Below the pieces are notes generated by a model. It was not told where the DNA came from and ran no database searches. It saw only the letters and a list, made by a program, of their open reading frames with translations. A stretch of DNA of 64,000 bases from a virus (Duplodnaviria > Caudoviricetes), in IMG/VR virus record IMGVR_UViG_3300014204_013734, positions 128,001-192,000 of that record; one strand, given 5' to 3'. The position numbers and the translations under genes were made by a program. Shown piece after piece: positions 2,472 to 54,991 of this stretch (its first letter is position 1; each line of letters starts with the position of its first letter).

Positions 2472-3154
2472 TGGCTTTGATGCGTCAACAGTCTGTATTC
2501 ACCTTCAAATCCTCGTCAGGGGGGGTGGATTACTATTTTGACATTGTTGTAGATGCCCAGGGACTTTTGTCCTTTCGTAATATCCGATCCCCCCAAGGGG
2601 TTGTAGATCCTGGTACAAATATCCCCAATTCTGTTATTGACGATATCACTACGGCAAAGCAGTTGGTTCAGCAACTTGTTGGGGAAACCCAGGCTGCTTC
2701 TGGGACAGTGACGTTTACAGGGGAAACAAGTCAAGCTGTGACAATCCCTGCCGGGACCCTCAATAACACCAACTATCGGGTGGTTTGTACGACGACTGAT
2801 GGCACCGCCCTGACTATTGAAAATAAGACTACCGTTGGGTTCAATATCGTGGCGGCTACCGCTTATGGCACCGTAGCGGATCCCAAAACGGTTGGTTGGG
2901 TCGTTTTGACTAAGACCCAAGAAGCCAGCGTGACAGGGGGTGTTTTGGCGTTCACTCCTGCGGATGCTGGACAAAAATCTGTAGTGTTTTCACCAGCTTT
3001 CACGTCAAACGCTTATCGGGTCATCTTATCGGAAGTTGGCTTTTTTAAGGCGTTTGTGGTTTCACAGACAAAAGCTGGTTTTACAGTGGGAATTGGGTAC
3101 ACCCTGGAACCCGGTGAAACCGTGCTGGTTGGATACGATGTTTTCGTATCGTGA
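2471..3154 (+). CDS. Putative virion structural protein with two beta-rich repeats
   Basis: Thr/Val/Gly-rich; repeated NYRVV...KTTVGF and AYRVI...QTKAGF units. Confidence 0.6.
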   Translation: MALMRQQSVFTFKSSSGGVDYYFDIVVDAQGLLSFRNIRSPQGVVDPGTNIPNSVIDDITTAKQLVQQLVGETQAASGTVTFTGETSQAVTIPAGTLNNTNYRVVCTTTDGTALTIENKTTVGFNIVAATAYGTVADPKTVGWVVLTKTQEASVTGGVLAFTPADAGQKSVVFSPAFTSNAYRVILSEVGFFKAFVVSQTKAGFTVGIGYTLEPGETVLVGYDVFVS

Positions 3155-3166
3155 GGAAGCCTAAAA

Positions 3167-3511
3167 ATGAGATGTCGTCCTTTTGACGTGTTGGTAAAAC
3201 CTCTGGGTCTTGATAAACCGCAGGTAGTGTTGGATAAAGAACCTTCAGTTGAAGAGACTTTGGAAAATGCGGTTCAGAGGGCCTTGGGTTGGGTTTACAT
3301 GGCAGACGTAGGGAAGGCCGGTAATCCCCCGGCGGTGAATCATTGGTGGCTCCGTCGGGATGTGCAGCTTGATGGCAGGATCGCCCAAGTTCTGGAGCAG
3401 AATGGCTTTGTAGAAGGTCGGAACAAAATTGCTGGTATTCCCGCTGAAGTCCGCCTTACCCGGGAAGGGGTAGCGGTAGCCCGACGCGCTATTGAGGGGA
3501 TTCGGTCATGA
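3167..3511 (+). CDS. Hypothetical protein
   Basis: GAGG RBS; ATGA overlap with the next gene. Confidence 0.65.
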   Translation: MRCRPFDVLVKPLGLDKPQVVLDKEPSVEETLENAVQRALGWVYMADVGKAGNPPAVNHWWLRRDVQLDGRIAQVLEQNGFVEGRNKIAGIPAEVRLTREGVAVARRAIEGIRS

Positions 3512-4776
3512 CCCAGGCAGCTTTCAAGGTTGACCAATTGAAAGTGGAACCCGGATTGACTGGGGTTCGGGTGATGAAGGCTGAACCCGGGACTGGAAAG
3601 TTGCAGTTTTTTGATCCGGATGCTTTGGCCGGCGTGACTTTGGCTGGTATTTCTGGTGTCGCCGTAGATCAACTGTTTATTGTTGGCCTTTCAGGTACAG
3701 GAGCCAAGTATAAAACCATCAAGGATGCCCTTGCTGCTGCCCGAGCGTTGCGTTTGGCCGGTAGCACGGACGCTTACCTGATCCTGGTGTTTCCTGGTGC
3801 ATATGTGGAAACAGAATCCTTGGTTGTGGATTTCAATGATGTTGTCATCCAGGGATTCGGCGGGTCCGTGTCCCTTTCCATAGACGACCATGTTTTCCAA
3901 ATTAAGGCATACAGTTCAGGTGCGGTTACTATTTGGCCGGAACGTGTTTGTCTGTCTGGTCTTCGTCTCATCAACGCCAGTCCAACAGGGAAAGCCTGCG
4001 TTTACATAGAAGGCGGCGATGTCAGTGCCGTCAGTTCCAGGGTTGGATTGAAAGGTATCGTCCTGGACCAGATATGTTGGGAAACTTCTGTATCCGGTAT
4101 TGCCTTACAAGCAATTTCCGCTAATCACGTTAAGGTGACTGGCGGATCCATGAAAGAATGCGCCGGGGGCGGGAGCCAGGTGCAGATTGACACCTGTGCT
4201 TCGTTTGTTTTGGAAGGGGTGCCGGACGGGTCCAGTTGTCTGCTGGATCTGGATTCCAGTCATGATATCCCCGAAGATGGTATTGCTAACTCCGTCTATC
4301 GTGTTACGTCCAGTGCTTTGTCCGGGTTGGTTTCAACCTTGACGGGCGGAGGGGCTTTGGACCTTTTGGGATGTGATGGGGCATTTAACGTCATATTCGG
4401 CGGAGCTTTGCGTAAGGCGCACGTCATCGGTTGCCGTTTGGGTGTTGTTTCGGTCACTGGAACTGTGCAGATGGCACTTGACGGGACTATTTACACGTCC
4501 TTGTCTGGCGTCGCCGGGGCGACCCTTTCGGAACCGATCCAGGCAGGATTTGACGTTTCTATTCCTGTTGGCGACACTGCTGTGTCCGTGACCATTCCCA
4601 GACAACCAGACACGAATTACATGGTTGGTGTGTCCATGCGGGATCAAACGCCTACGACTTGGAAAGTCACGGTGAAGACGGTCACTTCGTTCACTGTCGT
4701 TTTTACGGATGTGGACATTGTGAACGTTCGGACTTTTGATTGGAACCTTATCCGGTCCGTGAAAAACCTGGTGTGA
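3508..4776 (+). CDS. Putative beta-helix (pectin-lyase-like) virion fibre or spike protein
   Basis: KYKTIKDALAAA...ILVFPGAYVE cap motif typical of parallel beta-helices; C-terminal beta domain resembling 2471..3154. Confidence 0.55.
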   Translation: MTQAAFKVDQLKVEPGLTGVRVMKAEPGTGKLQFFDPDALAGVTLAGISGVAVDQLFIVGLSGTGAKYKTIKDALAAARALRLAGSTDAYLILVFPGAYVETESLVVDFNDVVIQGFGGSVSLSIDDHVFQIKAYSSGAVTIWPERVCLSGLRLINASPTGKACVYIEGGDVSAVSSRVGLKGIVLDQICWETSVSGIALQAISANHVKVTGGSMKECAGGGSQVQIDTCASFVLEGVPDGSSCLLDLDSSHDIPEDGIANSVYRVTSSALSGLVSTLTGGGALDLLGCDGAFNVIFGGALRKAHVIGCRLGVVSVTGTVQMALDGTIYTSLSGVAGATLSEPIQAGFDVSIPVGDTAVSVTIPRQPDTNYMVGVSMRDQTPTTWKVTVKTVTSFTVVFTDVDIVNVRTFDWNLIRSVKNLV

Positions 4777-35904: not shown

Positions 35905-38622
35905 GTGTTGACAAAACAGGAATTGATGGGTTTCATTAGACAAGGGATGTTGGACAAAGAAATAGGATTAGCTTGTGGCGTTACGGACGTCACGGTAGGT
36001 AATTGGCGGGACTTTTATGGTTTGAAGACGTTGTCTGTTGATGATCGGCGCGTTTTGCAGGGTTTTCCTTCTTTTGAAGCTGTCACCAAGGATCAGATGC
36101 TTGCACACTTGGTTTCGGGCAAATCCTTGAAGCAGATTGCAGACCTTCACGGGGTGTCTGTTTTTCCCGTGAAGCAGAAGCTGAAGAAATTCGGGTTGGG
36201 TGTCAGGCAGAAATGGCATTATCAAGGGTGTGATGTACTTTCGGATTCTTTGCGTCGTTTGCTGGTTGGTGTTTTGTTGGGGGATGGTACTGTAGGTTAT
36301 GTTGAAGGAGGGGAAACTTCAAGATTCAAGGTAGGTCATAGTCACAAACAGTATACTTACCTCAAGTCTTTGCATGCCAAAATGGGGAAATGGGCACGAC
36401 CGATCAAAGGGTCTGTGTCTTTCAAGTATGGGAAGAAACGATTTAGTTATTGGTTCACGACCATTAATCACCAGGAATTCAGGAAGCTTCGCAAAGAATT
36501 TTACAGGGACGATTTATATGGGACCGTTCCGAACGACTGGTTGAAAGCACCCCCGTTGGAAGTATTTCGTACCTTGCACGATGAATCTTTAGCTTACTGG
36601 TATTTTGATGATGGGGCTTTGGGAACTTCGGACGAAAGCGTTTCTTTGGCGGTGTTCTTTCCGTTGCTTGACATGGATGCCGTTGTAGAAGCCTTGCGTG
36701 TCGGAACGGGTTTGCATTGGAGAAAAAAAGAATGTTCAGGTCATTTTTATAAGGTGTTTTTGGAAGCGGCAGACAAAGAAGCTTTCTTTTCTCGCATCGT
36801 ACAATATGCAACCCAGGATATGGCCTACAAATTCCCGGAAAAATGGTGGAAAGACATAGAAGGATTTTGTATTATTCCTGACGGAATTAGCAATCTTTCG
36901 GAAGAAATATTGTACCACTATCCTGTCACGGAATGGAAGAAGTTGGAAGCGGATGATCAGAAACGTTGGGTGAATGAAGTATTCACCATTTACAGGGCGA
37001 CGGGATTCCCTTTCTCTAAGGTGCTATCAAAAGAAGAAACCCTTGCTACCGTTTTAAGGCTTGCACGGCATAAGGAATTTGTGGATGACGGACATCCTTT
37101 TATTCGTTCCATCGTGGGTCTTTCTTTGTGTAATGGATATATGCCACACAGATTCCAAGTGGTAGTTGGGGGCAAGAGTGCATGGGACACTTTCCACGAT
37201 GATGTTGCTTTCAAGAAAGTGCTTTGGACGCAGTTCAGGATGGCAGGAAGCCGGTGGGTTGGGCCTAAGAATATAAGAGGGGCTTTGTCCGTGTACGGAG
37301 GAAATCGGACACCTTCTAATTTTAGGCCCTCCGCAGTCAAGGCATTGGTGGACCGTTTCTGTTTACCTAGCGGGGTGGTGTGGGATCCTTGTGCGGGTTT
37401 TGGGGGTCGTCTGTTGGGAGCTGTCTGTTCGGACATGAACGTAACTTATATCGGTACGGAACCTTCCCCTCAAACGGTGACTGGTCTTGAAAGGTTGTGG
37501 AAATCAGTTTCTTCTTCAATGGGGTGGCAAAAGGATAGGGTTCGTTTGATTCAAGGGGTAGCAGAAAAAGATTGTCCTGACCCTGATTCTGTGGACTTCG
37601 TTTTCACGTCCCCTCCTTACTTTGACAATGAACGTTATGTAGGAGGACGACAATCTTATTTGTACGACACCTACGTCTCTTGGGTTGAAAGCTTTTTGGG
37701 ACCTTTGGTAGGCAATGCCTATTCTTGTTTGCGGTCTGGGGGTTTTCTGGCAATCAATATTCAAGACATAAAGATGAACGGAAAAACGCTTCCTTTGGTA
37801 GAAGATTTGGATGGGGAAGTTAGGAAAAAGGGCTTCAAGAGGTTCATTCGTTGTTGGTACCCTCTCAGTTTTTTTGGGGGGCAACGCCCTGATGAACCGA
37901 TCCTTATTTATTGGAAACCCTTAGAAAGTATGGATTATGAAGAACCTTCATGGGATTTCGGGGTGAAAAACACCACGTCTGGAAGACATACGGTGTCCAT
38001 TGAAAACGCTTTTTTGCGAAAACGATCCGCCTGTAGCAGGTGCGGAATTCCTTTGGAAGGTCCTACGCGTCAGGTTCGGCATTGCCCTTCTTGTAAGAAA
38101 GAACTTAACGCGGAAAGGGCTCAAACCAAACGAAATTCCTTCAGGGAAGTTCACCCTATCAAGGGATGTCGCACTTTTACCTGCAAACAGTGTGGTTCTT
38201 CTTGGGAAACCTTTGAACTTGGGAATTTTTCTATTTGTCCTTCATGCCGGGAAAAGGAAGCTTTAGCTAAAAGGTCCAAAATCTGTGTCTACCGAAATTG
38301 CGGAAAATCTTTTGTAGACAATAGTTTAAAGAATTCCATGTCTTATTGTTGTTCAGAATGCCAGCGTCGGGAGAAATTGTTTCGATCAGGGAAGGTAACG
38401 GACGAATCCCATTTTCGGGTCAAGGGTAGTCCCAGGGTTCGTACTTGTATGGTTTGCCAAGGGGTTTTCATCCTTGAAAGCGGGGAGGGGAACAATAATC
38501 GGTGTCCAGTTTGTCGTGAAAGGGCTCGGGACAAGAAATGCCGGAAGTGTGGTGTTGGTTTCCGTGATGGTAGCCTGAAGAATACGGTAAAGTTCTGTCC
38601 TGATTGTCGGAAGGGTCCCTGA
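35905..38622 (+). CDS. HTH + LAGLIDADG endonuclease + amino-DNA methyltransferase + zinc-ribbon fusion protein
   Basis: LVGVLLGDG and LAYWYFDDG; motif I WDPCAGFGGR; motif IV FTSPPYF; many C-terminal CxxC pairs. Confidence 0.82.
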   Translation: MLTKQELMGFIRQGMLDKEIGLACGVTDVTVGNWRDFYGLKTLSVDDRRVLQGFPSFEAVTKDQMLAHLVSGKSLKQIADLHGVSVFPVKQKLKKFGLGVRQKWHYQGCDVLSDSLRRLLVGVLLGDGTVGYVEGGETSRFKVGHSHKQYTYLKSLHAKMGKWARPIKGSVSFKYGKKRFSYWFTTINHQEFRKLRKEFYRDDLYGTVPNDWLKAPPLEVFRTLHDESLAYWYFDDGALGTSDESVSLAVFFPLLDMDAVVEALRVGTGLHWRKKECSGHFYKVFLEAADKEAFFSRIVQYATQDMAYKFPEKWWKDIEGFCIIPDGISNLSEEILYHYPVTEWKKLEADDQKRWVNEVFTIYRATGFPFSKVLSKEETLATVLRLARHKEFVDDGHPFIRSIVGLSLCNGYMPHRFQVVVGGKSAWDTFHDDVAFKKVLWTQFRMAGSRWVGPKNIRGALSVYGGNRTPSNFRPSAVKALVDRFCLPSGVVWDPCAGFGGRLLGAVCSDMNVTYIGTEPSPQTVTGLERLWKSVSSSMGWQKDRVRLIQGVAEKDCPDPDSVDFVFTSPPYFDNERYVGGRQSYLYDTYVSWVESFLGPLVGNAYSCLRSGGFLAINIQDIKMNGKTLPLVEDLDGEVRKKGFKRFIRCWYPLSFFGGQRPDEPILIYWKPLESMDYEEPSWDFGVKNTTSGRHTVSIENAFLRKRSACSRCGIPLEGPTRQVRHCPSCKKELNAERAQTKRNSFREVHPIKGCRTFTCKQCGSSWETFELGNFSICPSCREKEALAKRSKICVYRNCGKSFVDNSLKNSMSYCCSECQRREKLFRSGKVTDESHFRVKGSPRVRTCMVCQGVFILESGEGNNNRCPVCRERARDKKCRKCGVGFRDGSLKNTVKFCPDCRKGP

Positions 38623-39201: not shown

Positions 39202-40524
39202 ATGACCGCCAAGGACATTTTAGAAACTTTGAAAGAGAACAAGGTACGTTACCTTCGCCTGTGGTTCTCTGATATTTTGGGCCACAACAAGAACGTAGAA
39301 GTTCCAGAAAGCCAGTTTGAAAAGGCACTGGATGGCCAAATACTCTTTGACGGTTCCTCAATTGAGGGTTTCGCCCGCATTGAGGAGTCCGACATGCTGT
39401 TGCGCCCTGACTTTGCTACCTTCTGCATCTTTCCGTGGGAGGAACGTGGGGGCAAGGTAGCACGTCTTATTTGTGACGTGTTCCATCCAGACGGCACCCC
39501 TTTTGAAGGGTGTCCCCGGACCGTCCTGAAACGGGTTTGTGAGAAGGCATTGAAACTCGGCTATGTTATGATGGCCGGCCCCGAAGCCGAGTTCTTCCTC
39601 TTTGAACGCACTGTGGGTTCGTCTGTTCCTAAAACACATGACGTCGGCAGTTATTTTGACCTGACCCCAGTGGACCGGGCCGAAGATGCACGTCGGGACA
39701 TTGTGTCGGTCCTGGAGACCATCGGCTTTGAAGTCGAGGCGGCCCATCACGAAGTGGCCTTCGGCCAGCACGAGATTGATTTCCGTTACGCTGAGGCACT
39801 CAAAACTGCTGACAACGTGGCGACCTTCCGGTTTGTCGTGCGTAAAGTAGCTCTTGATCATCACTTGCTCGCCACCTTCATGCCCAAACCCATCTTTGGT
39901 ATCAACGGTTCCGGCATGCACGTCCATCAGAGCCTTTTCACACAGGAAGGCAAAAATGCCTTCTATGACGCCGATGCCAAGTACCAGATCTCTGAAACGG
40001 GGCTTTCATACATTGGCGGTCTGCTTGCCCATGCCCGTGGGTTCTGTGCTGTCACGAATCCGCTTGTGAACTCGTACAAACGCCTTGTGCCGGGCTACGA
40101 GGCGCCTACGCACATCGCATGGTCCGAACGCAACAGGTCCCCGCTTGTTCGTGTCCCGGCTCGCCGTGGTGTGGGCACGCGTGCTGAGCTGCGCATGCCC
40201 GACCCCTCCTGTAACCCCTATCTTGCCATGGCCGTGACGTTGGCGGCCGGGCTTGACGGCATTGAGAAACACCTTGACCCTGGCCCTCCGGTGAATCAGA
40301 ACATTTATACGATGAGCCCGCAGGAACGTGCAAGGCTCAAAATAAGTTCCTTGCCCGGGGATCTGGGAGAAGCCGTGGAAGCGATGCAGAAAGACGATTT
40401 GGTACGGGAAGCTTTAGGAGACCACGTTTTCCAGCATTTCATTGCCGCCAAGACGCAGGAATGGCAGGAATACATTGCACAGGTCCATCCCTGGGAGGTG
40501 GAACGGTATCTCTCGGCTTATTGA
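39202..40524 (+). CDS. glnA: Glutamine synthetase type I (GSI-alpha-like)
   Basis: FDGSSIEGF, HHEVAFGQHEIDF, ATFMPKPIFGINGSGMHVHQS, NSYKRLVPGYEAP, ELRMPDPSCNPYLA; 440 aa. Confidence 0.96.
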   Translation: MTAKDILETLKENKVRYLRLWFSDILGHNKNVEVPESQFEKALDGQILFDGSSIEGFARIEESDMLLRPDFATFCIFPWEERGGKVARLICDVFHPDGTPFEGCPRTVLKRVCEKALKLGYVMMAGPEAEFFLFERTVGSSVPKTHDVGSYFDLTPVDRAEDARRDIVSVLETIGFEVEAAHHEVAFGQHEIDFRYAEALKTADNVATFRFVVRKVALDHHLLATFMPKPIFGINGSGMHVHQSLFTQEGKNAFYDADAKYQISETGLSYIGGLLAHARGFCAVTNPLVNSYKRLVPGYEAPTHIAWSERNRSPLVRVPARRGVGTRAELRMPDPSCNPYLAMAVTLAAGLDGIEKHLDPGPPVNQNIYTMSPQERARLKISSLPGDLGEAVEAMQKDDLVREALGDHVFQHFIAAKTQEWQEYIAQVHPWEVERYLSAY

Positions 40525-46652: not shown

Positions 46653-47450
46653 ATGGCAGCTCGCGTTTACATCGTCCTGGCCCGGAATGATGTTTCTGAC
46701 AATCTCCTTCAGGTCCTGGACCTGAAACCCAATTCCTCGCAGCGGGTTCCGGCGCTGGAAGGGGAAGGGCAAACGGGATATCTCACTTGGGATCCTCAGA
46801 ATGATACCGTGGCAACAACCGGTGGGGCTGGGGGCATCCGTACGACCAACGCCATCTACAAGGGTCTTGCCGCTTACGTCATCGACAACGTGGAAAACGT
46901 TCAGGGGGGCAACTTGGCGTCCACGGCCGCACAGGCAAACACCATTGCCGCAGCGATTCTGACCAGGATCACGAACGGTACGTCCCTTACCTTGGCGGCT
47001 ATCAACACCATCATCAACGCGGCGTTCGGCGGGGCTGCCAATTCCGACTTGAACGGTGCCGTTGCAGGGTCTTTCTCGACCGGGACTGTTGAAGAAGTTC
47101 TCCGCATTGCCGGTGGTGAAGTCTACAGTTTGCCGGCTGCGTCCCAGGTCGGTAACGCCGGCAACGCATTCCCTGGCCATGGTGTAGCACACGTTCGTAA
47201 GGGTGCATACCTTGCGTCTACTGCTACCGGGTATCGCAACGTCCGTCAGTTCGTTTGGACTGGGGAACTGAACCTGTCCTGCTTGTCCGGCACTTTGAGC
47301 AAGCTCAAGGCGGCTACGTGGCAGTGGATCAACCCCCTCTTCACTTATGGCGCAGCCGGGACGGCCTTGACCGCATCCGGGACGCACATTCTCGCCACAG
47401 GCCTCGCAGCGGCAGTTGTCGTCTACGAAGCCGACGGCGACGTCCTGTAA
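46653..47450 (+). CDS. Structural protein, paralog 2 of 3
   Basis: YIVLARNDV...LQVLDLKPN and VVVYEADGDVL; strong codon bias. Confidence 0.72.
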   Translation: MAARVYIVLARNDVSDNLLQVLDLKPNSSQRVPALEGEGQTGYLTWDPQNDTVATTGGAGGIRTTNAIYKGLAAYVIDNVENVQGGNLASTAAQANTIAAAILTRITNGTSLTLAAINTIINAAFGGAANSDLNGAVAGSFSTGTVEEVLRIAGGEVYSLPAASQVGNAGNAFPGHGVAHVRKGAYLASTATGYRNVRQFVWTGELNLSCLSGTLSKLKAATWQWINPLFTYGAAGTALTASGTHILATGLAAAVVVYEADGDVL

Positions 47451-47462
47451 GGAGGAACACAC

Positions 47463-48416
47463 ATGGCGCAAAGAACTTACATCATCCCCCGGAGGTTGGA
47501 TGTCCGTGACATGAATCTCCAAGTGCTGGACCTCAAACCCAATACGTCTCTGAAGAACAGTGTCCTTGACGGTAATGGACAGACGTTCTACATCGACAGC
47601 ATGGATTGGTTCGGGGCGACGACTGACCAGAACGATTCCTTCAAAAGCGGGAGCCGGAACACTGACTTCGCTACGGCGTCCAACTATGACTGCACGGCAC
47701 AGGACACTACCGGTGGCGGAAACGACTGTTTCGCTACGGCTCGGGCGTCCTTTGGTCTTGCCGCATACCTGCGGGAAATGGTGCAGCCGGGAGGCATCAT
47801 TCTGGCAACGGCAGGACGTATGACTCCGGCTAATGCTATCCTTCAGGCTCGGGCACTTGCCGCCTTGGTAGAATCAGGCGGAAACCTTACGGCAGCAGGT
47901 ATCAATACGGTCCTGTGCAATGTCGGCGTCGGAGGTACGGCAAATACGGACCTTACCGGGGCGGCCGGTTTCTCCAGGTCCCACGGTACCGTGGATGACA
48001 TTCTCCGCATCATGTCAGGAGAAACCTGGGTGTGCCCGAGGTATGTGATCGTCGCCAATGCGGCTAACCAGTTCCTTACGGCGGCTTCCAGAGCTACCCT
48101 CGTGACAGCGCAGAAGCCCTGGGTTACCGGCAAGACCTTCGTGGCTTCCGGTCACTGGGCAACGACTACGGAACCCGGTCACAAGGAAATTCCGATGTTG
48201 GCGTACGGCGGGGCGGTAAACGCTTCCTATCACGCCGGCTACCTGTTCAAACTTGCGGCCAACGTCACCTTCCTCAACCCGAATAAGGCGTACACTGCCG
48301 GTGATGTCAGCCAAGAACGCCCCAGGGCCGTGAGAATGAGCGGCGCTGCCATTGCAGCTACCGGAACGGCTCCTGTCGTTCGTGTCTACGACTACGACGG
48401 CACTTGCCTGCTGTAA
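47463..48416 (+). CDS. Structural protein, paralog 3 of 3
   Basis: YIIPRRLDV...LQVLDLKPN and VVRVYDYDGTCLL; AAGGAGG RBS. Confidence 0.72.
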   Translation: MAQRTYIIPRRLDVRDMNLQVLDLKPNTSLKNSVLDGNGQTFYIDSMDWFGATTDQNDSFKSGSRNTDFATASNYDCTAQDTTGGGNDCFATARASFGLAAYLREMVQPGGIILATAGRMTPANAILQARALAALVESGGNLTAAGINTVLCNVGVGGTANTDLTGAAGFSRSHGTVDDILRIMSGETWVCPRYVIVANAANQFLTAASRATLVTAQKPWVTGKTFVASGHWATTTEPGHKEIPMLAYGGAVNASYHAGYLFKLAANVTFLNPNKAYTAGDVSQERPRAVRMSGAAIAATGTAPVVRVYDYDGTCLL

Positions 48417-48437
48417 GACATCAGTTTGTTCGCTGAG

Positions 48438-48472
48438 AAACGGGGTTCCTTACGAGGAGCCCCGTTTTTTTT
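48438..48472 (+). terminator. Rho-independent terminator
   Basis: aaacggggttcct-tacg-aggagccccgtttttttt. Confidence 0.9.
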
Positions 48473-48553
48473 CCTTTGGTTAGTATCTTAATGGGGGTTA
48501 CCTCCCACCGCCAAACGGCGGAACGACATATTTATGGATCAAGGAGCCAAATC

Positions 48554-48802
48554 ATGGAAAATGTTCAGCCCAACCTGTTCCGTACGTCCGACCTGTATTT
48601 CGCCGCTTACCTGAAAGTAGCCGGTGTCAAATTTCTTGAAACCGTCAAGGAAGGGGATCGGGTAGTATTTGTGTTTGAAGAAGGTGGCGTATTGCGGGAT
48701 CTGAAGAACGCTTATTTCAACCGGTCAGCTAAGGTGTTTGCCATGAGCTATGCCGATGAAATCAAGGCCATGAAGGCTCTGACCCATATGGCAGGTCGGT
48801 AA
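48554..48802 (+). CDS. Small hypothetical protein (resembles DUF5659)
   Basis: AAGGAG RBS; FRTSDLYFAAYL...RVVFVF. Confidence 0.6.
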   Translation: MENVQPNLFRTSDLYFAAYLKVAGVKFLETVKEGDRVVFVFEEGGVLRDLKNAYFNRSAKVFAMSYADEIKAMKALTHMAGR

Positions 48803-49092
48803 TGTTTCCTTCCTGGCAAGCATTACTGGTAGCCTATGCCATCTGTTTCGGTATCCGGCAGAAATGCCGATTCTTAGACGGATTGCATCCGGTCCTTGAC
48901 AACTTTCTTGAATGCCCATACTGCGTCGGATTCCATTCCGGATGGATGGTTTGGGCACTCGTGTGGGTAGCCGAAGGTAACCCCCCGGGAGGATTCGTGG
49001 GAGCCCCCCTTTGGGCCTTAGCATCGGCAGCGTTTTGTTTGCTTTTGGAATATTTGGCAGATTGGCTTGAAAACGGGGTGCTGAATGCCTGA
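48802..49092 (+). CDS. Small membrane protein (resembles DUF1360)
   Basis: LECPYCVGFH motif with hydrophobic segments. Confidence 0.6.
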   Translation: MFPSWQALLVAYAICFGIRQKCRFLDGLHPVLDNFLECPYCVGFHSGWMVWALVWVAEGNPPGGFVGAPLWALASAAFCLLLEYLADWLENGVLNA

Positions 49093-49366
49093 CAGGAATC
49101 TGGATTGTCGGATTGACGTTCCGGATGCGTTTGATTCCGTTCCTTTAGTCAATGCCTTTAGGGCTGTTCAGGATGGAAGTGGGGATTGGATGCTTGACTT
49201 CCTTATCCTTTCAGACAAAGCTTGCAAGGCATCTGTCATGGCCCGGGTGCGGGTAGGACCCGAATTCATGGCCGCAATCCGGGACCGGTTGGCGTCTACC
49301 CTGCGTTATGTCGGGGATGATGTCCTGATGCTTCCGGCCGGGTCTGGAAGCACGGAGGTAAATTGA
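49085..49366 (+). CDS. Small hypothetical protein, paralog of 41046..41270
   Basis: VNAFRAVQ...MLDFLILSD...ASVMARVRV. Confidence 0.7.
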   Translation: MPDRNLDCRIDVPDAFDSVPLVNAFRAVQDGSGDWMLDFLILSDKACKASVMARVRVGPEFMAAIRDRLASTLRYVGDDVLMLPAGSGSTEVN

Positions 49367-49367
49367 A

Positions 49368-49868
49368 ATGGCTGCAACTTTTACGCCTGGCGAAACGCTA
49401 GTTCGTGGGGATTTATCAATTTTCTTAGTAGATTCTAATACCAATGCAACGGACGCGGCGGAAATCACGTTTGCCCTTTATTGGGTTGATCCAGGTCCCC
49501 CCGAAACGGAAGTCCTGATCGGGTCGGCCACCAGGATACCGGCCCATCCAGCCGTTGGGGAATATTACGCTTCCCTGATGATCCCTCCTGCAGCGACGCC
49601 AGGAAATTACCGTATTCGCTGGACCTTCAGGGAATTCATATCATCCCCACAACAACAGGTAGTCCAGCAATTTCAGGTTGTTCTGCCTAGTTCCCCTCTT
49701 GTTAATTTGCAGTATTCCGTGGCCAAACAGGACATGATCAACAAGTTGCGGGTTCTCCTTCGGGACAACTGTGTAGGAGGGGAAGCAACGGTAGAAGTGG
49801 ACGCCGAGGGGGAACGACTGGTTGTGTCCATGGAAGACCTGTGGGAGGCATTGAAGGATGAAGGTTGA
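49368..49868 (+). CDS. N-terminal half of a fractured neck/head-completion-type gene: 134-aa extein plus 32-aa split-intein N fragment (49770-49865)
   Basis: Ends LLRDN|CVGGEATVEVDAEGERLVVSMEDLWEALKDEG*, resembling intein block A and aligning with the start of the intact intein at 51287. Confidence 0.78.
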   Translation: MAATFTPGETLVRGDLSIFLVDSNTNATDAAEITFALYWVDPGPPETEVLIGSATRIPAHPAVGEYYASLMIPPAATPGNYRIRWTFREFISSPQQQVVQQFQVVLPSSPLVNLQYSVAKQDMINKLRVLLRDNCVGGEATVEVDAEGERLVVSMEDLWEALKDEG

Positions 49869-50624
49869 TCGGCCACATCCCAAACTGATCCCTTTGTTGG
49901 AAAAGAACGCCCTTTCTTGGGAACAGTTTTCCAAAAGGGGGCGTTTGCCCGCCGATTTGCAGTGGGTCGTCAACAAACGTTCTTCCATCATCACCGAAGT
50001 GCATGCGGCTGGAACCCCGTGGAAGGAAATCATTGAAATCACGGGTTTGTCCTTGGGTTCCATTGAACGGTTGACAAAGGCCATGTGGAATTCTGAATCC
50101 AGGAAGAATGCTTCGGCAATGGGGGTGAAAACAGGAAAGGCGTGGAAAGGGAAGAAACGCCCAGGCCAGTTGGAACGACAATGGGCGGCAGGGAATTTTG
50201 ATGCTCCTTCTACCAGGGCAAAATATTCCATGGCCGCAATCCAGAACATCCTGAATCATCCGAAATGGGGATATCCGCAGGGGATTAGGGAAGTCGTCAA
50301 TACCTTGAAAGGCAAAACAGCCGAAGTCCGTGTTAGGTCTTCCTATGAAAAGAAGGCAATTGAAATCTTGGACAATGCCCTTGGGTAGCTTCTTATGAAT
50401 ATGAACGGTTGATCCGGTTGCAAAACGGCAAAAGAATACTTCCCGATTTTGTGGTGAATAAAACGGAGGGGTCGTGTCTATTGGTTGAAGTGAAGGCATC
50501 TTATGTTTTGAAAAAAGCTGCAAGATTCATCTCGCAAATAGAACGGTTGGAAGTTGCAAAGAAGGAAGCTGAAGCACGGGGTTGGGCCTTCACCGTTTGG
50601 ACGGAAAAGGAATTGTGGTCATGA
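49858..50624 (+). pseudogene. Frameshifted TnsA-like PD-(D/E)xK homing endonuclease between the split-intein halves
   Basis: RSSYEKKAIEILDNA, then the -1 frame continues PWVASYEYE...ILPDFVV...LVEVK...GWAFTVWTEKEL; break near 50378-50388. Confidence 0.75.
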
Positions 50625-52024
50625 TCACCGACGCCCAAAAAAATAAGCTGCGGACGGCATTCAAGAAAAATGAACTCCGAATCCGATCCGTATCCCCCGA
50701 AGGAACCGTGGTCTGGAAACGCGTCCTTCAGGTGTTCAGGAATGAAGTCCCTTGGGAACGTATCGTTTCTATCACAACCCCTTACGGAAGCATCCCCTTC
50801 ACAGGGGGTCACAAACTGTACACCACCCCCACAGTGAAGAAAAAAGCCGAAGATTTCCGCCCGGGAGATCATGTGGTGGCGGTAGTAGATGACAAAATTC
50901 TGTATGTCCCTGTTACGGAAATCAAGGAACTTCCCCCCAGGCAGTTCATGTATGACCTGACCGCCGACACTTGGGCAAATTTCTCTTGTTGCGGTGTTTT
51001 AGTTAAAAATTCCCCAGATCGCAACTACCACTTCAGACCCCCGGAATTTGAAGGGGACATCGGTAAGTACGACCGTATCTTCGGTCAGGTCTGGGAAGAT
51101 GCGGAACTCCTGGAATACATAGAACGGGCCCTGGACTGGTTCAACATGTTCCCCCCATTGACCCAACGGATCAATACCGTCGACCTCCTTTGCACGGAAA
51201 TGCCTGCGTGGCGTACCGCCATCCTTTGGGGAGCCATTTCCCACGCCTGCTTCGCCCTTGCGGCGAATTGGGTCGTGGACGAATTCAGCCTCAAGGGCGA
51301 CACCACCGTTACCGTTTTCCTGCCTGGGGAAAAATCGGTCAGAATGACCATGGCGGGCGTCTTCGACGCTTGCCACGTTCCTTTCCCAGCTTCCCGCCAT
51401 CCCATGCACCAGGAAATCCGGGATGCTTTCAGGGAAGGGACCTTGATGGTCGCTTCCGTGGATCCCGAAACCGGACGGGTTGAGAAGAGGCAGGTTTCCG
51501 ATGTCCTTCGTCATTTGACGCCTCACAAACGGATGGTCAAGGTGTTTCTGGAAGGGAACCGGTCCGTTACCGTCACTGAAGACCACAGCCTCTTCAAGAT
51601 GGATGGTAAACGGATTGTCCCGGTTCGGACGGCGGACCTGGTGTCCGGTGATATCTTGTCGGTGGTCGCTGAGGGAGAAAATCAGGCATCCGGTGCCAAG
51701 ATCACTTCATTCCTTGATGAACCGAGGGAAGAATTCACCTACGACCTGTCCGTTCCAGGTTTTGAAAACTTCGTCCTTTCCAACGGTATCGTAGCCCACA
51801 ATTCCTATTCCATCGGGGGGGTCAGTCTGGACATTGAAAAATCGTCCAAGTACGAAAGTTTGAAGCAAAACGCCGAATCAATGTTCGACAAATCGACCGA
51901 GGCCAAAAAATCTACCGTGCTTTTTATTCGTGGTTTGCAGCAGCCGCGATTCGGGTTGGGTGTACGCTCGGCGTTTGGTCCCGCCGTTGGTAAGGGGGTG
52001 CTTTCGCCCAGAGCATTCCTGTAA
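50621..52024 (+). CDS. C-terminal half of the fractured gene: 130-aa split-intein C fragment, extein, and a second contiguous intein
   Basis: ATGA overlap with the endonuclease stop; FTGGHKL block B; MYDLTA...GVLVKN|S; extein DEF|SYSIGGVSLDIEKS. Confidence 0.8.
   Translation: MITDAQKNKLRTAFKKNELRIRSVSPEGTVVWKRVLQVFRNEVPWERIVSITTPYGSIPFTGGHKLYTTPTVKKKAEDFRPGDHVVAVVDDKILYVPVTEIKELPPRQFMYDLTADTWANFSCCGVLVKNSPDRNYHFRPPEFEGDIGKYDRIFGQVWEDAELLEYIERALDWFNMFPPLTQRINTVDLLCTEMPAWRTAILWGAISHACFALAANWVVDEFSLKGDTTVTVFLPGEKSVRMTMAGVFDACHVPFPASRHPMHQEIRDAFREGTLMVASVDPETGRVEKRQVSDVLRHLTPHKRMVKVFLEGNRSVTVTEDHSLFKMDGKRIVPVRTADLVSGDILSVVAEGENQASGAKITSFLDEPREEFTYDLSVPGFENFVLSNGIVAHNSYSIGGVSLDIEKSSKYESLKQNAESMFDKSTEAKKSTVLFIRGLQQPRFGLGVRSAFGPAVGKGVLSPRAFL
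51287..51802 (+). mobile_element. Mini-intein (172 aa, Ser1 and Ser+1)
   Basis: SLKGDTTVTV, VTEDHSLF, end TYDLSVPGFENFVLSNGIVAHN|S. Confidence 0.92.
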
Positions 52025-52152
52025 AACCTAATAATTTCAAACGCTTACAAAAACCTGCCGATTTTACTTGCAGTTTTGTTTTGGTTGTTGCCTTGGGTGT
52101 TGTATGTAAGTATTTTCATGCAGTTTTATCCATTTTAGTTCTTATTATTTAC

Positions 52153-52181
52153 TTGCTTTCTTTTCCGTAGCTTTATACAAT
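52153..52181 (+). promoter_or_regulatory. Sigma70-like promoter
   Basis: TTGCTT-17 nt-TACAAT, followed by AGGAGG RBS and ATG 52202. Confidence 0.6.
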
Positions 52182-52201
52182 AGGCAATTAGGAGGTGTCC
52201 T

Positions 52202-54991
52202 ATGCCTGTTTGTGAAGGTTGTGGAAAAGAATACAGTAAGGGCGGTTTGAATTCACACCGTAAAACATGTATTTCTTATCAAGAATGGGCAAAGCAACTG
52301 CCCTTTTCTTGTGCTTGTGGGTTTCATTTTGCCACAGAAAGATCATTACGATCTCACAAAAAAGGTTGTGGCAAGGCGGAACGATTGCGGCTGGGAGGGC
52401 GAAAGTGTGTTTGCGGTCAAACTTACTGGTCGGTTTCGGAACACCGTAAAACTTGTCCTGGTGCACCAGAAGAGTCTTCGTCTTTGGTGGTATTGAAAGA
52501 CCCACCTCCCGGATTTTGTGCGTGTGGAAGGGATTTTTCCGCCAGCAATCAAAGATCAACTTTGCACAAACATCAGCAGGGGTGTTCGGCGTGGCACGTC
52601 TGGCAAAAGACATTGCCAGTCAAATGCGAAGGTTGCGGTCTTGGTTTTAAAGACCAGTTTAGCAAACGGTCGCATGCACAATTATGTTCTGATTGGCAGC
52701 GTTGGAAACAGATAAAAGACGAAAAGGAAAAGAAATTCCCTTGCCCTTCTTGTGGAATGTTGTTTCGTGGTCTTAAATTAGGTCTTCACGTTAATTCTTG
52801 TTCCGGGCCATGGACAAAACGTGATTGGGCTCGGCAACATAGACGAAGTAAGAGCAAGAGATTAGGTTTGATGAATCAAAAATTTCGGGAAGGGGCGGAT
52901 TTTGTCACCTGCTTGTTGTGTGGGGACCGTTTTCGTTCATTGTCCTTCCACTTGACTAGTCAGCATGGCATTGATACTGTGGAATACAGGTGCAGATTTG
53001 GAGGGGCTTCGGTGTCTGGAAACACCCAAGCTAAAAGAAAAGCAACAATGATGGACCGATACGGGTATCCTACACTTCTTCAACATCCCGTGTTATCTAA
53101 ACAGATACAAGAAAAGAGAAAAGCTACTTGTCGTAAACGGTATGGAGGAGACAGCCCTTTTTCTTCTAACTTGACAAGACCCCCAAAGAAAAACCGTTTG
53201 GAGTCAACGGTGGAAATGATTTCCCCTAAAAATGTGATCTATGTTGGAGATTTTCGTTACTGGATACAGTGCAAAGATGTGACGGGGAAGTGGATCAACA
53301 GAAATCCGGATTTCGTAGTGTATGACAAGGATAAGATGGATATTCTTTACAGCGGGGTTGTTCCGAACAAGATTCGCACTTGGAAAATTGTAGAAGTTCT
53401 AGGTGACTATTTTCACGGTCCAAAACTAAAAGGTTTGGATAGGGCAGCTTACACAGCCATGAGGATTGCAGAATATGCTTCCGTTAAGGTTCATTGCCTG
53501 ATCTTATGGGAATCTGAAATAAAGGATGACTTGGAAGCCGTTCGTGCCCGGTTATCCGCCTTTGCTGAAGAAAACCCCGTTTGTTTGAATTCGGATTCCG
53601 TCATTGGGGTTCCCCCTTCAAAATTTGACTTTGACAGGTATTACAAACGGAAGTTGTGGGCGGATGGGTTGGTAGAAGGGAAGGATTTTGTTTCCTGTCC
53701 GATTTGTGTGGCTTCCGATTCAGAGAAGGAATATCGGGCGCTACGTCTGGCCGACCACTTGAAACTGGTTCACGGGTTGTCCAGGGCGGAATTTGAGAAG
53801 CAGTTTCCAGGGTCCCCCATCGTTGCCCCTGTCGTCTATGAGAAGCGATCCAAGACCGTTAAGGCACTTTACGGCGTTGACAATGTGTTCCAGGCTGAAT
53901 CCATCAAAGAAAAGTCCAGGGAAACTGTCAGGGCCGAATATGGGGTGGACCATTCATCTCAAATACCTTCTGTCGTCCGACAGCGGGCAATGACCAATCT
54001 GTCCCGTTACGGACATGAAAACCCGTTCGGTGGGGAAGCCGTACAGGAAAAAATCCGCAAGACCATGACGGAACGGCACGGTGCCCCTAACCCCCAACAG
54101 GTTCCTGAAATCAGGGCACGCACTTTGGAAACCTGCAAGGATCTGTATGGGGATGAATTCTTTTTCCGCACGGAAGAATTCAGGAAGAAATTCCGGGAAG
54201 TCAGCCAGGAACGATTCGGTGCGGATCATCCGATGCAATCCGATGAAGGAAAAGCCTTGTGTGTAAAGGGTTGTCAAGAACATTTGGGGGTTGACAACCC
54301 TTTCCTTGTGCCGGACATTTTCAAGAAGTCTTACGAAACCAATCTAGCTAATCATGGGAGCAAGCATTCACAGCAGTGTAAGGAAGTACTTAAAAAAGCC
54401 CGTCAGACTTGGATGGAAAGGATTGGTGTTGACAATCCGTCAAAGTCGGAAGAAGTTAGGGCTAGGATGCGGGCAACATGGATGGAAAAGTATGGGGTTG
54501 ATCATCCGTTCAAAACCGAAATGGTTAGGCAAAAACTCAGGGAAGCTTTTATCAAAGCTTATGGAGTCCCTTTCTTTCCCAGCAGTGCTTTTTTCAAACA
54601 AAACCGCCCCAACAAGTTGGAAAAGAAATTTGATGCCTTGTCCCCCGTCAATGTGGTTTATGCGGGAGATGGGTCCTATTGGATCAAGCATACCGGGGCG
54701 ACCAATTCTCGTAATCCAGATTTTGTAATCTTGGATCAGGATCAGTTGGAATCCTGGAAGTCTGGGACGGCCTTGAACAAGCTCCGCACTTGGGGTACTG
54801 TAGAAATCCTAGGTGTTTACTGGCACGGACCTAAATTTACAGGGAAGAACCGTGATGACCATCAACTGGAAATCATTGAGTATTACGCCAAGTGCGGGAT
54901 TTCCTGTTTGGTTGTATGGGAAGATGATTTGAATTCCGATCCTGCTACCGTTGTCACCCGTCTTCAGCGGTTCCTCGGGTTTCAGCACTAA
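52202..54991 (+). CDS. Zinc-finger-rich putative homing endonuclease with two Vsr/PD-(D/E)xK-like nuclease domains
   Basis: Repeated CxC...HxxxC fingers; YGVDNP-type repeats; duplicated YxGD..YWI...RNPDFV...VE.LG.Y.HG...CL..WE. Confidence 0.78.
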   Translation: MPVCEGCGKEYSKGGLNSHRKTCISYQEWAKQLPFSCACGFHFATERSLRSHKKGCGKAERLRLGGRKCVCGQTYWSVSEHRKTCPGAPEESSSLVVLKDPPPGFCACGRDFSASNQRSTLHKHQQGCSAWHVWQKTLPVKCEGCGLGFKDQFSKRSHAQLCSDWQRWKQIKDEKEKKFPCPSCGMLFRGLKLGLHVNSCSGPWTKRDWARQHRRSKSKRLGLMNQKFREGADFVTCLLCGDRFRSLSFHLTSQHGIDTVEYRCRFGGASVSGNTQAKRKATMMDRYGYPTLLQHPVLSKQIQEKRKATCRKRYGGDSPFSSNLTRPPKKNRLESTVEMISPKNVIYVGDFRYWIQCKDVTGKWINRNPDFVVYDKDKMDILYSGVVPNKIRTWKIVEVLGDYFHGPKLKGLDRAAYTAMRIAEYASVKVHCLILWESEIKDDLEAVRARLSAFAEENPVCLNSDSVIGVPPSKFDFDRYYKRKLWADGLVEGKDFVSCPICVASDSEKEYRALRLADHLKLVHGLSRAEFEKQFPGSPIVAPVVYEKRSKTVKALYGVDNVFQAESIKEKSRETVRAEYGVDHSSQIPSVVRQRAMTNLSRYGHENPFGGEAVQEKIRKTMTERHGAPNPQQVPEIRARTLETCKDLYGDEFFFRTEEFRKKFREVSQERFGADHPMQSDEGKALCVKGCQEHLGVDNPFLVPDIFKKSYETNLANHGSKHSQQCKEVLKKARQTWMERIGVDNPSKSEEVRARMRATWMEKYGVDHPFKTEMVRQKLREAFIKAYGVPFFPSSAFFKQNRPNKLEKKFDALSPVNVVYAGDGSYWIKHTGATNSRNPDFVILDQDQLESWKSGTALNKLRTWGTVEILGVYWHGPKFTGKNRDDHQLEIIEYYAKCGISCLVVWEDDLNSDPATVVTRLQRFLGFQH

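Follow-up and report, generated by a model that had tools for sequence, protein, structure and literature searches.

The present study analyzes a fractured gene in a window of 64,000 nucleotides, bases 128001–192000 of the 381-kb IMG/VR virus record IMGVR_UViG_3300014204_013734 (estimated completeness 72%), in which all long open reading frames (ORFs) lie on the + strand. The gene is very probably that of a head-to-tail adaptor (neck) protein, broken into halves that would be joined by a split intein, with a second, contiguous intein (intein 2) excised in cis, to give a mature protein of 299 aa. The upstream part, gene A, is an ORF of 166 aa at 49368–49868 whose end reads LLRDN/CVGGEATVEV...KDEG and then stop (a slash marks a splice point), the codons of the N-terminal intein piece (IntN) occupying 49770–49865. 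The downstream part, gene B, spans 50621–52024, and the ATG at 50621 opens a frame that runs through the C-terminal intein piece (IntC, ending VLVKN/S), a stretch of extein, intein 2 (SLKGDT...IVAHN/S) and the remaining extein. An original prediction made from the letters of the window had proposed a block-A-like intein tail on the first gene and the rest of an intein, with the motifs TGGH, YDLT and VKN/S, at the start of the second, and both are present where it placed them.

The junctions were compared with homologs that carry no intein. The product spliced in silico, 299 aa long, aligned from residue 1 to 299 with intein-free homologs of 294–302 aa, gapless at LLRDN-SPDRNY and VDEF-SYSIGG, with a best identity of 69% to P0004 (P numbers denote related proteins and L numbers related loci). 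This was the comparison that the original prediction had proposed, and the alignment is end to end with no gap at a junction. The opposite case, in which homologs would keep the exteins as separate genes, was not found in any homolog lacking the intein halves. All extein parts in the window are open, with 53–82% identity to homologs and no frameshift. The N-extein, used as HMMER query against 1.84 billion representatives, returned 238 matches, falling into three length classes of about 300, 165–175 and 410–470 aa, and in blastn against GenBank phages LR745208.1 was the sole relative. In IMG/VR, 26 loci matched the middle extein, and on each of these the three exteins were then placed by tblastn. 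The exteins abutted in one frame in 17 of these; five loci had an insert only at the position of intein 2 (site 2, after ...DEF), three only at the position of the split intein (site 1) and one at both. The N-extein match ended at the base before the middle-extein match in the 20 of the 26 that lack an insert at site 1, and intein 2 was absent at its exact insertion point in 21 of 27 related loci. Most intein-free alleles have Asn (site 1) or Asp (site 2) at +1, and alleles that carry an intein have Ser or Cys there. The insertion points of both inteins coincide with the best-conserved motifs of the host protein, where R130, L133, D135 and P138, and F228, Y230 and S231, are invariant. One protein, P0153, has no intein at site 2 yet carries Thr at +1 (DEF-TYSIGG), against Asp in the other intein-free alleles, possibly a scar of precise intein loss.

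The same fracture at site 1 was seen in L001, L014, L016, L025, L034 and L039, with IntN of 30–34 aa and IntC of 130–134 aa counted from a conserved Met. The site-1 IntC genes of L040 and L041 are cut by the contig end, further site-1 pieces are found in P0002, P0005, P0008, P0011, P0022, P0025, P0036 and P0152–P0161, and P0156 and P0158 repeat the layout of the window, IntC followed by a contiguous intein 2. By sequence comparison the arrangement is no one-off, and the window holds one allele of a sizeable family. Contiguous alleles of the site-1 intein also occur (P0027, P0001, P0015, P0006 and P0034); they share with the window the insertion point (LLRDN/C...SN/SPDRNY) and the conserved blocks, the N-terminal part of P0027 being 60% identical to the window IntN, but they are single polypeptides with a short linker of variable length in the region of the break, and their N-terminal parts are mostly less acidic. 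What lies between the halves at site 1 differs widely. In LR745208.1 (GenBank, 485 kb, 68% nucleotide identity), which has no intein 2, the gap holds an intact endonuclease of 347 aa, and L025 and L034 hold intact TnsA-like genes. In L014 it is an HNH endonuclease gene (2776–3612), in L016 a gap of 119 nt without endonuclease (3483–3604), and in L039 a 238-nt remnant corresponding to the 3′ end, the last ~70 codons, of a TnsA-like gene (2764–3000). An HNH gene, an empty gap and a remnant at one and the same break point show replacement and loss of endonucleases.

The original prediction had aligned the joined halves with the intact intein later in the same gene, and this alignment holds from end to end (162 columns at 28% identity, blastp E 8e-11); intein 2 is a paralog of the split intein. 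A profile of IntC matched solved inteins (Mja KlbA, 2jmz, E 7e-9; Pho RadA, E 2e-6); gene A had no match in Pfam or PHROGs, and on gene B PHROGs gave only weak matches, outside IntC. A model of the contiguous allele P0027 (predicted local distance difference test, pLDDT, 96.4; template-modeling score, TM, 0.7–0.8 to mini-inteins) has the HINT fold, with strands at 7–12 and 15–20, helix alpha1 at 21–29, a loop at 30–33 and helix alpha2 at 34–41. The end of the window IntN maps to residue 32 of this model, in the alpha1/alpha2 loop, so that IntN, with secondary structure mapped from the contiguous allele, comprises two beta-strands and helix alpha1. Prediction of the IntN and IntC complex, which had been proposed as a check, gave a score of 0.87 against 0.02 for the best of three controls, with contact agreement between runs of at least 96% and partner pLDDT of at least 84, although likeness to solved inteins may contribute to this result. 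Of 80 solved complexes, 58 attained the score mark used, as did 2 of 110 mismatched pairs. The two pieces also differ in charge, with a net −8 on IntN and +6 on the first 45 aa of IntC. All 13 of 13 split IntNs carried −5 to −8, and several contiguous alleles were near neutral. The opposite charges fit the electrostatic pairing reported for inteins of fractured genes, and we infer that the two pieces would associate into one HINT domain.

The host protein had no Pfam or PHROG match, and its sequence identity to adaptor chains was 4–18%. An AlphaFold model of the intein-free homolog P0004 (alignment of 31 sequences, pLDDT 78) shows a beta-sandwich at residues 1–109, followed by helices, a hairpin at 229–238 and an extended C-terminus. 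Foldseek against the PDB found matches to this model only for the immunoglobulin (Ig)-like N-terminal domain. In an exhaustive VIA-align search residues 119–288 matched phage adaptor/neck chains with Z of 9.0–9.9 over 113–115 residues and root-mean-square deviation of 4.0–5.0, Z values that are moderate for a helical domain. Such chains made up about 15 of the top 40 rows, among them cyanophage A4 (9k09_d, 9.9), Pa223 (9nwi_A, 9.9), SU10 (7z47_A, 9.5), KHP30 (9.3), GP4 (9.3) and T4 gp13 (9lu4_D, 9.0), with about ten more. Matches in BFVD were significant but carried no name, for example Bacillus phage G gp165. The likeness of residues 119–288 of the homolog model to adaptor and neck chains bears out the earlier description of a structural gene, and the predicted fold is consistent with the class of head-to-tail adaptor proteins. 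Compared with phage adaptor/neck proteins, the window protein has an extra N-terminal Ig/macroglobulin-like domain.

Most of the residues expected of a class-1 intein are in place: Cys1 (49770), TGGH (IntC residues 61–64), the block-F Asp, Asn130 and Ser+1 (51011) are all present and are invariant across alleles with as little as 44% identity. Lys occupies the penultimate position (VKN), as the original prediction had pointed out; an addition to it is that the block-F His is replaced by Ala (WANF), so that the class-1 pair of block-F and penultimate His is absent. Nine other alleles have block F as W/H-H-N-F and a penultimate Ser or His. The stretch before block G is also two residues shorter in the window than in more distant alleles. 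When a database was searched with IntC, WANF, the two-residue shortening and Lys-Asn were seen to recur together in P0152, P0153 and P0154, at 61–66% identity, and conservation of the Ala/Lys form in three diverged relatives suggests a selected variant of a subclade as opposed to random decay. That the form marks a dying intein, or pseudogene, was considered and was rejected as the main explanation on the same ground. The block-F and penultimate His are common, not universal, in active inteins.

The original prediction had also described an endonuclease gene overlapping both halves. A reading frame does overlap both, its ATG at 49858 giving an 11-nt overlap with the end of gene A and its TGA overlapping the ATG at 50621 as ATGA, but the gene is broken by a frameshift. 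Its two frames (176 and ~80 aa) are parted by a one-base shift near 50373–50380, with the switch between LDN and ASYEYE, and together they align with intact relatives of 251–347 aa. Frame 1 contains a helix-turn-helix-like N-terminal region and the start of the nuclease domain and had no Pfam or PHROG match when taken alone; frame 2 exceeds the curated cut-off of PF08722 (26.5 bits), and intact relatives matched the TnsA-like profile with E of 1e-9 to 1.5e-4. No indel variant of the frameshift was present in contigs of two sequencing runs. Among relatives the endonuclease may be intact, frameshifted, cut to its 3′ end or absent. Inside the last endonuclease codons, 8 nt before the ATG at 50621, lies a Shine-Dalgarno-like motif AAGGAA, and where the 3′ end of the endonuclease is kept among relatives it carries AAGGAA or AAGGAG 8 nt before the IntC start. 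A role as ribosome-binding site may explain why this 3′ end persists. In the homing cycle a homing-endonuclease gene is expected to decay once it is fixed, which does not imply that the intein decays as well.

Fracture is not restricted to site 1. The intein at site 2 is split in L012, L013, L015, L017, L018, L025, L039 and L040, with a DUF559/Vsr-like endonuclease gene between the halves, Ser1 and Ser+1, and IntN of 31–39 aa; judged from these sequences, the split inteins at this site are candidate cysteine-independent representatives of the atypically split type. The possibility that the site-2 inserts of L012, L013 and L017 are large in-frame inteins was rejected, because translation shows a fracture. 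In L025 (2226–5950) and L039 (2263–5436) the adaptor gene lies in three pieces, with paralogous, atypically split inteins at both sites, and two such inteins in one protein imply that two predicted trans-splicing reactions must stay orthogonal. A third intein site lies six residues downstream of site 1 (NPDRNY/S), where the intein is split with a short IntN in P0060, P0070, P0117 and P0139 and contiguous in P0063.

The process consistent with these patterns would run as follows. The break in the gene would have been made by the TnsA-like homing-endonuclease gene now lying between the halves, itself decaying through its frameshift, with its 3′ end still supplying gene B with a ribosome-binding site and an ATGA-coupled start. 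Gene A would yield the N-extein fused to a strongly acidic IntN of 32 residues, which provides beta1, beta2 and helix alpha1, the break falling in the alpha1/alpha2 loop, and gene B would yield an IntC of 130 residues, basic at its start, that continues into the remaining extein and the contiguous mini-intein. Splicing would then take the class-1 route, in which an N-S acyl shift at Cys1 gives a thioester that is attacked by Ser+1, the terminal Asn cyclizes, and an O-N shift leaves LLRDN-SPDRNY. Excision of intein 2 (Ser1/Ser+1) in cis would leave DEF-SYSIGG.

Several observations weigh against a spliced, functional adaptor. Neither half of the split intein is recognized alone by Pfam, which sees intein 2 as the only part of gene B; halves of a known fold may pass the complex prediction simply through likeness to solved inteins; the window IntC is without both of the His that usually assist Asn cyclization, leaving rate, and even activity, uncertain; and, in a record that is ~72% complete, a second, intact copy elsewhere is conceivable. 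One alternative is that the halves associate without splicing, as a two-chain, non-covalent adaptor held together by the HINT domain, or that only cleavage occurs. The block-F Ala, the penultimate Lys and the two-residue shortening before block G would be compatible with this, and the predicted complex speaks to association only. We nevertheless regard it as improbable, because the invariance of Cys1, T-x-x-H, the block-F Asp, the terminal Asn and Ser+1 across such diverged alleles would be unexpected for a docking domain, and because a +1 nucleophile is found wherever the intein is present, against Asn in most intein-free alleles. Furthermore, a HINT domain of 160 residues left in place after helix 120–133, within the helical core, would, to judge from the model, probably disturb ring assembly.

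Still less probable, in our view, is that this phage carries a non-functional, decaying fractured copy, with the adaptor function lost or taken over by another gene. The frameshift in the neighboring endonuclease, the unusual catalytic residues of the intein and the incompleteness of the record could all be taken in this sense, but the extein parts are open and conserved, the unusual residues are kept in three diverged relatives, the host gene is single copy within the 381-kb record, the same architecture recurs in many phages, and endonuclease decay does not imply intein decay. The least credible explanation, to which we give hardly any weight, is an artifact of assembly or sequencing, the true gene being one contiguous intein with an in-frame endonuclease domain. 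Metagenome assemblies may carry indels, and the endonuclease frameshift lies at a short run of C. The gene A stop and the conserved Met of gene B in another frame are, however, seen in all of at least seven other loci with differing sequences, and L016 has both halves with no endonuclease. In addition, the whole 2657-nt stretch is identical (0 differences, 0 gaps) in a contig from a landfill run (173 kb, depth 29) and a contig from a groundwater run of a different study, either of which may be the origin of the record. From a further run, X3, there are just fragments, including a diverged one with 28 differences over 511 nt, and they are uninformative on the window allele; no RNA run is among the sequencing runs listed as carrying the stretch.

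Returning to the fractured adaptor gene joined by its split intein, it is possible to go one step further, although this we offer tentatively and with rather more doubt than confidence. The window allele might be a class-1 catalytic variant in which the penultimate Lys replaces both His in Asn cyclization, as suggested by the conserved covariation of (His, Ser/His) to (Ala, Lys) with the two-residue shortening. The adaptor genes of huge phages might likewise form a natural series in which one intein lineage occupies three sites in every state, contiguous or split with an intact, a decaying or no endonuclease, and including the three-piece genes of L025 and L039.

The system belongs, on good evidence, to a known and rare class and is not a new kind of element. 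In the fractured genes described by Dassa, London, Stoddard, Schueler-Furman and Pietrokovski in 2009 (PMC2677866), the layout is that of the window, the interacting parts likewise bear opposite charges, and one terminase locus is split at an unusual N-proximal point. The window has this layout with a frameshifted endonuclease, and L001, L025 and L034 have it with an intact one. It differs in that the published endonucleases are of a Vsr-like family, whereas that of the window is TnsA-like N (PF08722), with Vsr-like/DUF559 genes appearing at site 2 of relatives, and in that the window gene carries a second, contiguous, paralogous intein. Natural short IntNs range from 15 to 37 aa, and AceL-TerL and GOS-TerL, of phage or metagenome origin, are split after the first alpha-helix, the S2 position (PMC13014065). 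Compared by description, AceL-TerL, GOS-TerL and the consensus Cat-TerL have IntN of 25–37 aa and IntC of 104–115 aa, against 32 and 130 aa in the window with the same break after alpha1. The TerL inteins are hosted by the terminase large subunit and have Cys at +1, whereas the window intein is in an adaptor gene and has Ser at +1 and Ala/Lys in place of both His; no TerL intein was among the matches listed when the PDB was searched with the IntC profile. VidaL (6vgv) and PolB16 OarG resemble the window intein in their short natural IntNs (16 and 15 aa, respectively) and in the HINT fold, the contiguous-allele model matching 6vgv with E 1.7e-7 and TM 0.66–0.71, but they are split one element earlier, after beta2, at the S1 position (PMC13014065), as opposed to S2 in the window. 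PolB16 furthermore has Ser1/Ser+1 and lies in a PolB-type DNA polymerase gene, where the window split intein has Cys1/Ser+1 in an adaptor gene, and it was named in a 2026 paper as the only known natural cysteine-independent atypically split intein (PMC13014065). In a search of the literature on inteins in adaptor, neck or connector proteins and on split inteins in jumbo or huge phages this host was not described, a search that left subscription journals largely outside its reach, so that novelty is unproven.

Table 1. Features of the fractured adaptor gene, in window positions.
Feature	Positions	Strand	Basis
N-extein of predicted adaptor (neck) protein, 134 aa, ends LLRDN	49368..49769	+	Ig/macroglobulin-like beta-sandwich and first helix; residues 1–134 align with 1–135 of intein-free homologs
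IntN, 32 aa (Cys1...KDEG), and stop codon	49770..49868	+	Aligned with 12 other split IntN pieces and 3 contiguous alleles
Homing-endonuclease gene, frame 1, 176 aa	49858..50388	+	43–47% identity to intact 251–347-aa endonucleases in the same place in L034, L025 and L001
Homing-endonuclease gene, frame 2, TnsA-like PD-(D/E)xK core	50379..50624	+	Pfam PF08722 Tn7_TnsA-like_N, E 2.3e-8, 34.9 bits
IntC, 130 aa: helix alpha2, block B TGGH, block F YDLT..WANF, block G VLVKN	50621..51010	+	
Middle extein, 92 aa (SPDRNY...WVVDEF), helical core of predicted adaptor fold	51011..51286	+	53–74% identity to 26 IMG/VR loci
Intein 2, contiguous mini-intein, 172 aa, Ser1, ends AHN, Ser+1	51287..51802	+	Pfam Intein_splicing, E 3.2e-20
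C-extein, 73 aa (SYSIGG...SPRAFL), and stop codon	51803..52024	+	68–82% identity to related loci

The source, a huge phage, is rich in inteins, with ten Pfam Intein_splicing matches over at least five reading frames. Its host is possibly hinted at by the nearest NCBI-named relative of gene B (P0153/L041), which is filed as 'MAG: Hint domain-containing protein [Bacteroidota bacterium]', although this could be a binning error. Directly after the adaptor gene, at 52202–54991, is a free-standing, homing-endonuclease-like gene of 929 aa with DUF7487 repeats (E 1e-48), a ROS/MucR zinc finger and two PD-(D/E)xK-like ends, and similar genes come after the adaptor gene in L001, L014, L015, L016 and L040. 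Upstream are two adjacent paralogs (46653–47450 and 47463–48416; 265 and 317 aa) with a common N-terminal motif, MA.R.YI..R.DV.D..LQVLDLKPN.S, and no Pfam or PHROG match. This pair is followed at 48435–48470 by a strong terminator-like hairpin with a 16-bp stem, which was the one exception when a promoter and terminator scan of 48400–52400 showed no excess over shuffled background. A full-length glutamine synthetase gene lies at 39202–40524 (Gln-synt_C E 9e-139, Gln-synt_N E 6e-30; PHROG 21628, E 1.5e-139), an auxiliary metabolic gene amid virion genes, and an ORF of 905 aa at 35905–38622 has PHROG matches to LAGLIDADG homing endonuclease, HNH endonuclease, DNA-binding protein and DNA methyltransferase.

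Naturally split inteins with a short IntN are rare, the literature naming AceL-TerL, GOS-TerL, VidaL and PolB16, and they are wanted for semisynthetic protein labeling because the small piece can be made chemically. The present locus, together with the related ones, enlarges this set by dozens of diverged alleles, with IntN of 30–34 aa, in a class of host, a virion adaptor, that is unnamed in the literature found. The family gives natural contiguous and split versions side by side, as well as pairs that need orthogonality within one protein, and its conserved Ala/Lys variant probes Asn cyclization without the usual histidines. At one site, every stage in the life of a homing endonuclease can be seen. 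For the phages themselves, virion assembly in this group of huge phages would depend on the predicted protein trans-splicing.

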